DNA from: an uncultured Nitrososphaeraceae archaeon
GTDB lineage: Archaea; Thermoproteota; Nitrososphaeria; Nitrososphaerales; Nitrososphaeraceae
Direction of reading: 5' to 3'
Length of the DNA: 64,000 nt
NCBI GenBank assembly: GCA_963837175.1
Contig: CAWIMJ010000057.1
Location: 160,001-224,000 of the forward strand
Positions 3,199 to 4,825 of the stretch are shown here, one piece after another. Both the position numbers and the translations under genes were made by a program. Position 1 is the stretch's first letter. Each line of letters starts with the position of its first letter. Under the pieces are notes generated by a model. It was not told where the DNA came from. It ran no database searches and saw only the letters and a program-made list of their open reading frames with translations.

Positions 3199-3837
3199 CT
3201 AAAAAGGACTTCCCGTAGGTGGGGATGAACTATCCCCTCCGCCTGTTTCAGCTGATTTGGATGGTCCAGAATCTTTCTTCCTTAAGATGTGGCTGAAAAA
3301 AAGCATTGCCAAGATTACAGCTATAATAATATAATTAACTGGAGGACTTATAGCTCTAGTTATTAATCCAACACCTGGGATTACAAATGCGACCTTTCCA
3401 ATATACTCTTTTTCTGTAATAGGAAAATCTACTCCTGGAATAGAAGAAGGATTAGCATCGCCCTTGGTCCTGATAACTCTCTCTTCTTGAGAATTGATAA
3501 CAATATCTTTGATATCTGCTACCCTATGGACTATTACCCTATCAGCACCGTCAGGCCTATGGAAAACAATAATATCTCCCAGATTTAGACCTTTAAAAGA
3601 GCCGCCATCTCTCACGACTAACACATCATCTACATTTAGGTTGGGCACCATACTACCACTGGAAACTATATAAAATGGATTGGCAGTATCAAACACCAAC
3701 CTCATACCTACCCAAATAATTACAACTCCTATGGCAACAATCGCAATGTCTTTGATAGCACTTGGAATCTTCGACTCACGTTTATTTAGCAACTTTAAGA
3801 TTATCGCTTTTTTCGTTAGATAAACCTTTAGGTACAT
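3199..3837 (-). CDS. sec11: Signal peptidase I, Sec11 type (start uncertain)
   Basis: TM helix, VSSGSMVP, GDIIVF, IVHRV, TKGDAN motifs. Confidence 0.92.
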   Translation of the reverse strand: MYLKVYLTKKAIILKLLNKRESKIPSAIKDIAIVAIGVVIIWVGMRLVFDTANPFYIVSSGSMVPNLNVDDVLVVRDGGSFKGLNLGDIIVFHRPDGADRVIVHRVADIKDIVINSQEERVIRTKGDANPSSIPGVDFPITEKEYIGKVAFVIPGVGLITRAISPPVNYIIIAVILAMLFFSHILRKKDSGPSKSAETGGGDSSSPPTGSPF

Positions 3838-4313
3838 TTTTTTAAAAAATTAACTAAAAAAAGATATTTTTAGATTAAGATAATATATCTATGTATTTAC
3901 AAATATAGAAATGTATACTCATGCTGGCCCTTCCGCTGATTTTTAAGTAAAGCAAATCAGATGACAAAACTTTTTTAGTATTCTTAATTCTTAGTAATTG
4001 TCTCTAAGTGGCAATTTACTTTAAATAAAAATTTCATTAGAGTTGTAGTTATCTTGTGATTTCTTGTCTTCTTCTATTATATGTAAAGATTGTATGTTCC
4101 ATTGCTGGTAAGCACATTAAATAATTATCTGTTTATGTATCTAGCTTATCATAGCAGAGTAATGGATCATTTTAACCCGCAAGGTAGGCAGAGATTAAAA
4201 AAGATCCTCATGGAGCAGAGCTTAACGAAACATCATTTTGTGTACTTGCATTTCAAGTTAAAAAAATAGATCTATTCTTCTCGAACTAAAACCTATGAAT
4301 TCTTTATTATATA

Positions 4314-4394
4314 ATGGCAGCTCAGTCAAATGCCTTCTCCGCATCTTTTGCTCTCGCAAAATCAGACTTAACTCTGAATCTTCACTGCTGCCAT
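4314..4394 (-). ncRNA. Box C/D methylation guide sRNA
   Basis: 8-bp terminal stem ATGGCAGC/GCTGCCAT, C box GTGAAGA, D' CTGA, internal hairpin TTTTGC-GAGA-GCAAAA, D box CTGA; guides TCAGAGTTA and AAGGCATTTG are complementary to conserved LSU rRNA sequence as recalled. Confidence 0.8.
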
Positions 4395-4399
4395 CCTTT

Positions 4400-4825
4400 C
4401 TAAATATTAGGATTTTCATATTTAATGTGTTCGTCTATCGCCTGATTCGCCAGCAAATCTGCATTTCTATTTCTCGATCTAGGCACATGTTTATAAATAA
4501 CAGTTTGAAAATGTTTCTCAAGGTTAGATATTTCTCTAAATATGTCTTTTAGTTGCCTGTTTCTCAGCTTGTATCGGTTCGTTCGCTGATTAACAAGGAG
4601 TTGACTGTCTGACAAAATTGTAATCTTGTCATCTAAACCGAAAGCAATTTGCATAGCTTTTTTTAACGCTATGTATTCAGCCTGGTTATTTGTCTTAGAG
4701 CCGATGAACTCCTTGTGCTCTAATATTTTCCAATTTTCTTTGGCTATTACAATTCCTACTCCTGATAATCCAGGATTACCCCTGCTGGCACCATCGATAT
4801 TAATAATTAGCAAATGGTATAACAC
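4400..4825 (-). CDS. rnhA: Ribonuclease HI, archaeal type
   Basis: DGASRGNPG, TNNQAEY, SDSQL, HVPR, NRNADLLANQA motifs. Confidence 0.93.
   Translation of the reverse strand: MLYHLLIINIDGASRGNPGLSGVGIVIAKENWKILEHKEFIGSKTNNQAEYIALKKAMQIAFGLDDKITILSDSQLLVNQRTNRYKLRNRQLKDIFREISNLEKHFQTVIYKHVPRSRNRNADLLANQAIDEHIKYENPNI

Follow-up and report, generated by a model that had tools for sequence, protein, structure and literature searches.

In a 64,000-nucleotide (nt) stretch of genomic DNA from an uncultured Nitrososphaeraceae archaeon (contig C57, positions 160001-224000, referred to here as the window), we identified an 81-nt box C/D small RNA (sRNA) gene on the minus strand at 4394..4314. The draft genome consists of 58 contigs, amounts to 3.81 Mb and has a G+C content of 34%. 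The gene probably represents a single-copy member of an old archaeal sRNA family, whose D guide would direct 2'-O-methylation of A2019 in the 23S ribosomal RNA (rRNA), whose D' arm would clamp helix 69 (H69) of the same rRNA, and which would be transcribed from a promoter of its own.

All elements of the gene could be read directly from the sequence (Table 1). The TAG stop codon (4402-4400) of an upstream rnhA-like open reading frame (ORF) is followed by the five bases AAAGG, after which the sRNA begins. An earlier note on this DNA, made from the letters alone, had described this order of elements on the minus strand, 5 nt behind the rnhA stop, and its description was confirmed to the base. 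Box C is located near the 5' end and box D near the 3' end, and the two are brought together by a terminal helix of 8 base pairs (bp) with perfect pairing. As judged from the geometry of the sequence, box C and base 4386 give a 3-nt bulge (A, G, U) in front of the tandem G.A/A.G pairs formed with box D. The internal motif consists of a CUGA box D' and a C' of the form AUGCGGA, at the place of which relatives have AUGAGGA, AUGAUGA or AUGAAGA. An alternative C' register, beginning with the GAUG directly after the linker hairpin, was ruled out because relatives show RUGNNGA exactly 12 nt before box D. Both guides are about 12 nt long and possess at least 9 nt of rRNA complementarity, and each duplex includes the fifth position counted from D or D'. 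Folding of the sRNA yielded -28.2 kcal/mol compared with -18.0 +/- 2.7 kcal/mol for 200 shuffled sequences (z = -3.85; none of the 200 as good), the linker hairpin alone accounting for -5.2 kcal/mol. Both strands of the 3.81-Mb genome were additionally scanned under strict structural rules (a C box, a stem of at least 5 bp one base away, a D' GA at 11-13 nt and a C'-like heptamer 12 nt before a D CTGA), which returned a single candidate, namely the window sRNA. By its sequence-level features the locus qualifies as an archaeal box C/D sRNA whose C'/D' motif is imperfect, and the dual-guide reading of the earlier note is supported by this anatomy together with the two 23S complementarities and the conservation in relatives described below.

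Table 1. Positions of the box C/D sRNA, its elements and associated features in the 64,000-nt window
Feature	Position	Strand	Basis
Whole box C/D sRNA, 81 nt	4314..4394	-	Sequence; BLAST borders; covariance model R1
Terminal stem, 5' strand, ATGGCAGC (AUGGCAGC as RNA), 8 nt	4387..4394	-	Perfect pairing with 4321-4314
Single A between 5' stem strand and box C	4386	-	Sequence
Box C, GUGAAGA (GTGAAGA)	4379..4385	-	RUGAUGA variant with A at position 5
D' guide, TTCAGAGTTAAGT (UUCAGAGUUAAGU as RNA), 13 nt	4366..4378	-	Pairs with own LSU 1992-2000
Box D', CUGA	4362..4365	-	Sequence
D'-C' linker, hairpin UUUUGC-GAGA-GCAAAA (4361-4346) plus G (4345), 17 nt	4345..4361	-	Sequence and fold
Box C', AUGCGGA	4338..4344	-	Exactly 12 nt before box D; degenerate
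D guide, GAAGGCATTTGA (GAAGGCAUUUGA as RNA), 12 nt	4326..4337	-	Pairs with own LSU 2016-2025
Box D, CUGA	4322..4325	-	Sequence
Terminal stem, 3' strand, GCTGCCAT (GCUGCCAU as RNA)	4314..4321	-	Pairs with 4394-4387
RNase H gene (rnhA-like, 141 aa)	4400..4825	-	Pfam RNase_H 52.5 bits, RVT_3 68.9 bits
TATA-like box TTAAATAT at -31..-24, probable sRNA promoter	4418..4425	-	Inside last rnhA codons

The genome contains two copies of the large subunit (LSU) rRNA differing at 4 positions, one of which lies at C57:230738-233711, outside the window and 6.7 kb beyond its end. The D guide forms 10 contiguous Watson-Crick pairs (guide positions 2-11) with own LSU 2016-2025, CAAAUGCCUU (CAAATGCCTT as DNA), and its fifth pair falls on own A2019, which is E. 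coli A1938 and the third A of a CAAAUG segment. In case of the D' guide, 9 contiguous Watson-Crick pairs (guide positions 4-12) are formed with own LSU 1992-2000, UAACUCUGA (TAACTCTGA as DNA), and the fifth guide position is opposite own A1993 (E. coli A1912). An alignment to E. coli 23S rRNA showed that own numbers equal the E. coli numbers plus 81 across the target stretch; the D' duplex corresponds to E. coli 1911-1919, i.e. the H69 loop, and the D duplex to E. coli 1935-1944. The two target segments are separated by 15 nt. Shuffled D guides reached at least 10 contiguous pairs somewhere in 16S or 23S rRNA in 132 of 20000 trials (ca. 0.7%). Shuffled D' guides reached at least 9 pairs in 841 of 20000 trials; in 450 of 200000 trials (ca. 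0.2%) such a match lay no more than 100 nt from the D target.

The predicted sites can be related to modified positions of yeast 25S rRNA. Yeast pseudouridines Psi2258 and Psi2260 are E. coli 1915 and 1917, i.e. in H69 the yeast number equals the E. coli number plus 343 (PMC2794176), and the 2'-O-methyladenosine Am2256 therefore corresponds to E. coli A1913. The D' site A1993 is located one base 5' of this position. The yeast marks m5C2278 (5-methylcytidine), Am2280 and Am2281 (PMC5199042) fit the C-A-A-A at own 2016-2019 under the same offset. Own A2019 would then be yeast A2281, where the offset is carried from H69 to the CAAAUG segment in place of a yeast sequence alignment. These results are in good agreement with the earlier note, which had named two LSU segments about 15 nt apart as targets: both are present in the organism's own 23S rRNA with exact complementarity of 9 and 10 bp. 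Its placement of the D+5 position on the third A of CAAAUG (own A2019 and E. coli A1938, and yeast A2281 if the +343 offset carries over) and of the D' position on an H69 loop A beside the Am2256 equivalent (own A1993, E. coli A1912, next to A1913) likewise held.

Conservation within the family was assessed with a 111-nt BLAST query, in which the sRNA occupies positions 17-97, searched against 101 genomes of the same family (the tally counts the unpublished genomes G077, G035 and G098). Alignments in most genera began and ended at the sRNA borders, for example at query positions 16-100 or 19-96, and in three genera the 3' half only was aligned. We collected 50 family loci, made up of the 30 best and 20 chosen to cover other genera. 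All 50 could be parsed as stem, RUGA[A/G/C]GA, NUCAGAGUU(A/G), linker, RUGNNGA, (N)AAGG(C/U)AUU..., D box and stem, with the C'-like RUGNNGA exactly 12 nt before box D in every case, a spacing set by the construction of the parse. Box D was CUGA except for two loci with CCGA. The window C' aligned with the AUGAGGA, AUGAUGA and AUGAAGA of relatives, and among the 50 loci the forms AUGCGGA and AUGCAGA were found only in the window's genus. In an alignment (A1) of the 46 distinct family-level sequences, invariance was confined to residues of the boxes and to the cores of both guides, namely box C (its U, G, A, G and A columns), box D (C, G and A), the D' guide core UCAGAGUU and the D guide AAGG.AUU. 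The G-A of the tandem sheared pairs in boxes C and D was kept in all 46, as were the inner 6 stem pairs, two of which showed compensatory changes (A-U to G-C in 3 sequences, C-G to U-A in 2). Changes on both sides were seen at 4 of the 8 stem pairs, compared with 7 of 500 shuffles, and 87.8% of stem cells were paired compared with 15-57% when the partner strand was slid. The earlier note had stated that boxes not conserved in relatives would refute it; boxes and both guides are conserved.

A covariance model (R1) was built from the 46 distinct family sequences and matched the window sRNA end to end with 89.9 bits. Within the class, 131 of 151 genomes had an R1 match, nearly always as a single copy, and so did 108 of the 111 good-quality genomes (the class tally counts the unpublished genome G230). 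Matches by family were 80/80 for f2, 3/3 for f3, 9/9 for f4, 9/10 for f7, 7/8 for f8, 15/17 for f9 and 2/2 for f12; f5 yielded 2/14, both weak, and none of the 4 genomes of f6, f10 and f11 was matched. On the level of the phylum, 77 of 151 genomes had a match, with 0/13 for each of f17 and f22. Twenty-five loci were aligned to R1 (22 from more distant lineages, 2 from sister families and the window's own), of which 22 keep A[G/A]AGUUA, 22 keep AAGGCAUU and three combine another D' guide with the same D guide. The exact pattern matches listed comprise at least 120 stretches, nearly all of them Nitrososphaeria. They include Nitrososphaeraceae, Nitrosopumilaceae, Nitrosotalea and Cenarchaeum, and also Ca. 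Caldarchaeum, Bathyarchaeia, Ca. Methylarchaceae and Ca. Geocrenenecus; the listing is not informative on other phyla such as Asgard or euryarchaeal lineages. By a rough estimate, about two chance matches are expected for the guide-core pattern. One contig of a cyanobacterial metagenome-assembled genome (L208) contains both guide cores and CTGA but neither C box nor stem, and was rejected as a chance match. The two rRNA targets did not vary among 18 LSU copies obtained from 14 family genomes (28 genomes queried with the segment own 1940-2080), nor in 4 more distant genomes. Guide-target covariation was sought for the guide variants AUUAGA, GGUAUUUGU, AUUUAU, UCAAAGUUA and CCAGAGUUA and none was found, the rRNA targets being invariant.

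Some homologs showed individual features of their own. The phylum-level homologs L126, L128 and L131 keep the D guide AAGGCAUUUGU and carry a GAGUACUCCCGAC-like D' guide, i.e. a guide swap. In the distant Thermoproteota loci L127, L129 and L132 the homolog has tRNA genes on one or both sides (Rfam tRNA matches within 150 nt), which suggests sRNA-tRNA clusters. Sister-family homologs (L077-L115) have a stem mismatch (C.U, U.U, C.A or U.C) at an A-U pair of the window's family in every row read by eye. In genome G279, which carries the sRNA, the 23S match is broken by ca. 776 nt after own 2005 (E. coli ca. 1924; L266/L267, G279:C4:1029-1946). This insertion is located exactly between both guide targets and looks like an rRNA intron, with both flanks of which the sRNA would pair.

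Variation among homologs was characterized for 230 loci, 219 of which were parsed to give 184 distinct sequences; 120 of the loci came from a pattern scan that preselected for exact guide cores and CTGA, so that only other features are unbiased in these. Of the 184, 165 have A, G or C at position 5 of box C and 19 have U. At the place of box D', CUGA is present in 128, 38 have another NNGA and 18 lack the GA. The spacing from C to D' is 13 nt in 125 sequences, the window included, and 12 nt in 39, and this spacing determines the N+5 position of the D' arm, which is E. coli A1913 (the Am2256 equivalent) with 12 nt and A1912 with 13 nt. Linkers of 3-5 nt occur in 124 sequences and linkers of 13-24 nt in 36, the hairpin linker being lineage-specific. 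The homologs are 59-84 nt long, with no restriction to multiples of three, and indels occur in the linker only. The window's genus has the most stable linker hairpin (-4.2 to -5.2 kcal/mol). All 16 distinct long linkers start with UUU right after D', many end in A-runs, and 7 of the 16 fold below -1 kcal/mol alone; with such UUU...A-run ends, an internal kink-turn would have its canonical stem.

As far as can be read from the sequence, neither the C/D motif nor the D arm departs from the canonical form. In case of the D' arm, the pairing core is kept everywhere in the family-level set while the D' box, the register and the C' partner drift. Because the D' guide is kept while its box, spacing and C' drift, we judge that selection would act on the pairing with H69, methylation at this site being optional. 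That the D' arm methylates A1993 (E. coli A1912) in the window's genus is doubtful. According to the literature, it is the norm for dual guides to address sites no more than 100 nt apart and to act as folding chaperones (PMC7994747; PMC6009581), and a D' arm that acts through pairing only fits this chaperone view.

From the observed anatomy, complementarities, conservation and protein genes, we infer a course of events for ribonucleoprotein assembly, methylation, chaperoning and promoter use. The sRNA would be made from a promoter of its own, the TATA box within the 3' end of rnhA. Terminal stem, box C (GUGAAGA) and box D (CUGA) would form a kink-turn to which L7Ae would bind, followed by assembly of Nop5 and fibrillarin. 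The D guide, with its 12-nt spacing and 10-bp duplex, would then direct 2'-O-methylation of 23S A2019 at the H70/H71 junction. The D' guide would pair with the whole H69 loop 15 nt upstream on the same rRNA, and the sRNA may in this way clamp two neighbouring subunit-interface strands during ribosome assembly. The genome encodes L7Ae (C16:137289-137525), fibrillarin (C50:284707-285348) and an adjoining Nop5 gene, with fibrillarin and L7Ae intact.

An rnhA homolog is found upstream and on the same strand in 42 of the 50 family loci, within 250 nt in 41, and upstream rnhA is missing in g15, g4, g9 and two g14 loci. TAAATA starts at -34..-23 in 38 of the 50 loci and in 12 of 16 genera, where ca. 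1.6% would be expected per such interval based on 4 matches in 3000 upstream positions; related genomes are non-independent samples in these counts. A narrower expression, T[TA]A[AT][AT]T[AT], covered 8 of 16 genera, and TAAATA was used in its place. In sister families, 38 of 38 loci could be parsed and only one (f3) has rnhA, at a distance of ca. 550 nt, while a TTTTAAAA-type hexamer starts at -29..-24 in 32 of the 38, compared with 2 matches in 2128 background positions. Given the TATA-like box at a fixed distance and the sister families that have a promoter but lack rnhA, transcription of the sRNA is most likely driven by a TATA box of its own within the rnhA 3' end, and the sRNA would not simply be cut from the rnhA mRNA. 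Most archaeal C/D sRNAs are likewise reported as independently transcribed (PMC6009581). The earlier note had proposed co-transcription with rnhA, of which the synteny is real (42 of 50 loci), but the transcriptional link is put in question by the conserved TATA-like box and by the promoter that sister families possess without rnhA. No T-run follows the terminal stem at the window locus. Downstream on the same strand, a signal peptidase gene (Peptidase_S26; 3199-3837) is located after a gap of 477 nt, and the order rnhA, sRNA, signal peptidase recurs in many family loci as a conserved arrangement.

Six sequencing runs contain parts of the stretch, each with at most a quarter of the sampled words, and four RNA runs were examined as contigs, which indicate presence in an RNA library only. 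Three soil metatranscriptomes from one study (X1-X3) contained only the coding part of rnhA (4433-4803) and, having no sRNA cover, are uninformative on sRNA expression. An oligo-dT sediment metatranscriptome (X4) yielded one contig of 230 nt over 4189-4418, which overshoots the sRNA by 24 nt on the upstream and 125 nt on the downstream side and crosses the rnhA stop by 16 nt; it gives no ends, strand or size.

Several observations weigh against the mechanism proposed above. Box C' has a C where the A of the sheared A.G pair is expected, and the D' duplex starts only at guide position 4. Guide variants occur in relatives without a compensating change in the target; since the rRNA targets are identical everywhere, these variants amount to weaker pairings next to box D and provide no evidence of covariation. 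The genome is AT-rich and the TATA-like motif shares its bases with conserved rnhA codons (Ile-Lys-Tyr), so that the protein may account for part of the motif's conservation. The X4 contig fits read-through or DNA carry-over just as well as a small RNA and does not fit a transcription start exactly at 4394. Finally, Nop5 (G000:C50:285688-286369; locus L259, 1101-2376) is encoded in two frames as a result of one extra base. The break lies in the conserved LPSS-TIQVLGAEKALF region, while in each of the 6 other genomes of this genus Nop5 is one frame of 433 aa. An assembly error is the simplest reading of this break; it could also be a recent lesion that leaves this strain with impaired C/D machinery.

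In its full form, the reading of the earlier note has both arms active, with 2'-O-methylation at A2019 and A1993, and the RNA processed from the 3' end of the rnhA transcript, which we consider unlikely as a whole. Two active arms would be consistent with the perfect CUGA of box D', the 13-nt spacer and the 9 bp to H69, and the linker hairpin could give the canonical stem of an internal kink-turn. The C' without the A of the A.G pair argues against activity of the D' arm, as do the shift of the D' site with 12- or 13-nt spacing and the loss of box D' in 18 of 184 homologs that nevertheless keep the guide. Processing from the rnhA transcript is suggested by the position of rnhA directly upstream in 41 of 50 family loci, by the transcription of C/D sRNAs with protein genes in Sulfolobus and Pyrococcus (PMC6009581) and by the 16 nt that the X4 contig runs past the rnhA stop. 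This contig, however, covers less than 31 nt on the rnhA side and was not counted as bridging, and both the conserved box at -31..-24 and the 37 sister-family loci with a strong promoter but without upstream rnhA point towards independent transcription. A further alternative is that the RNA has kept the shape of a guide and no longer methylates here, being either an rRNA-folding clamp only or a relic in a strain with broken Nop5. Although the extra base splits Nop5 in this assembly only, C' is degenerate and conserved guide-target pairings without methylation have been discussed for Pyrobaculum (PMC6009581), we regard this as very improbable. The C/D kink-turn elements, the D guide and its 12-nt spacing are intact and do not differ from those of relatives in the genus whose Nop5 is intact, fibrillarin and L7Ae are likewise intact, and in a draft of 58 contigs an error is the likelier cause of a one-base break. 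There is next to no probability left for the view that no RNA gene exists and that a chance arrangement, an rnhA terminator hairpin or part of a 53-aa ORF (4419..4258) was taken for one. This ORF overlaps the sRNA and the terminal stem lies just past the stop codon. However, the sRNA is the sole structural candidate in 3.81 Mb and is conserved in hundreds of genomes whatever the neighbouring gene, homolog lengths of 59-84 nt with linker-only indels do not follow multiples of three, and the stem is not followed by a T-run. The conservation detected with R1, the indel pattern and the genome scan refute this view for practical purposes.

Two further candidates were noted outside the window. A second likely box C/D sRNA is located at G000:C47:87590-87676 (+; locus L268), with an 8-bp terminal stem, a C box of the form AUGAAGA and a D' guide that forms 11 contiguous pairs with 23S rRNA (own C2586); BLAST matches with coinciding borders were found in 22 of 40 other family genomes, the unpublished G035 among them. 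A third, putative C/D sRNA lies at G000:C13:49067-49158 (-).

Neither the window sRNA (E up to 10) nor 20 homolog loci matched any Rfam family at its gathering threshold, and the matches obtained were box-driven. The best models were the Pyrococcus sRNAs sR14 (RF01145), sR11 (RF01150) and sR17 (RF01144), all sub-threshold, with a best score of 12.7 bits against a threshold of 38 bits for the window and of 31.1 vs 39, 27.6 vs 38 and 29.7 vs 36 bits among homologs. These Pyrococcus sRNAs have the generic C/D layout in common with the window sRNA, whereas the aligned guide regions differ. Models of eukaryotic small nucleolar RNAs (snoRNAs), including the snR13/SNORD15 lineage, gave no match to the window sRNA at E up to 10, and homologs gave only weak, box-driven, sub-threshold matches to plant and nematode families. 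In yeast, Am2280/Am2281 and Am2256 are assigned to two separate snoRNAs, snR13 and snR63, whereas both guides are found on one RNA here: the predicted D site is the yeast A2281 position and the D' arm covers the H69 loop in which Am2256 lies; where relatives have a 12-nt spacer, the N+5 of this arm coincides with E. coli A1913, the equivalent of Am2256. The match with Am2281 and Am2256 appears real for positions, while common descent with snR13 and snR63 cannot be claimed from it. The earlier note had spoken of eukaryote-type sites, but this goes too far, as methylation hot spots have already been predicted for helices 68-71 (H68-71) of hyperthermophilic archaea, among them H69 near E. coli A1912 (PMC4644070).

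The sRNA also agrees in many respects with described archaeal dual-guide C/D sRNAs from Sulfolobus, Pyrococcus, Pyrobaculum and other archaea (Dennis et al. 2015, PMC4644070; Lui et al. 2018, PMC6009581; Breuer et al. 2021, PMC7994747), which have the same order of C, guide, D', C', guide and D, a spacing of ca. 12 nt and a terminal stem. As here, their two guides address sites at most 100 nt apart on one rRNA, and targets lie in the H68-71 hot spot, which includes H69 near E. coli A1912. In contrast to these sRNAs, the present family has A, G or C for U at position 5 of box C (165 of 184), and the window's genus is distinguished by a length of 81 nt, a 17-nt hairpin linker (the usual loop being 3-9 nt) and a degenerate C'. 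Both guides are kept across the class and much of the phylum, whereas reviews stress fast turnover and few conserved sites (PMC7994747; PMC6009581). The literature searched yielded nothing on C/D sRNAs or rRNA 2'-O-methylation maps for Thaumarchaeota/Nitrososphaeria (Nitrosopumilus, Nitrososphaera); the supplements of PMC4644070 and PMC6009581, covering seven and six species, may list homologs. Going by its sequences, this is a real new sRNA family of a known class that is not in Rfam, and three points are unusual, namely the deep conservation of both guides, a box C without U at position 5 and the hairpin linker seen in the window's genus.

In conclusion, the literature searched has next to nothing on box C/D guide RNAs of mesophilic, ammonia-oxidiser-type archaea, and genome annotation overlooks such RNAs for lack of a fitting Rfam model. 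The family yields a covariance model and two precise methylation predictions at the subunit interface, in H69 and at the H70/H71 junction, and represents a single-copy marker in most genomes of the class. Lineages which have the H69 guide but lack box D' provide a natural test of a pairing-only, chaperone-like function. The retention of both guides across the phylum, set against the published rapid evolution of guides, makes a case for asking which rRNA methylations predate eukaryotes. A far-reaching and, in our estimation, rather improbable extension would be that the common ancestor of the Thermoproteota (TACK) already had a single dual-guide sRNA clamping H69 and the H70/H71 junction, that the sites persist as eukaryotic Am2256 and Am2281, with snR63 and snR13/U15 either descending from or having replaced the ancestral guide, and that the D' arm survives mainly as a pairing-only assembly chaperone. 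If true, the family would include one of the oldest traceable methylation-guide RNAs.

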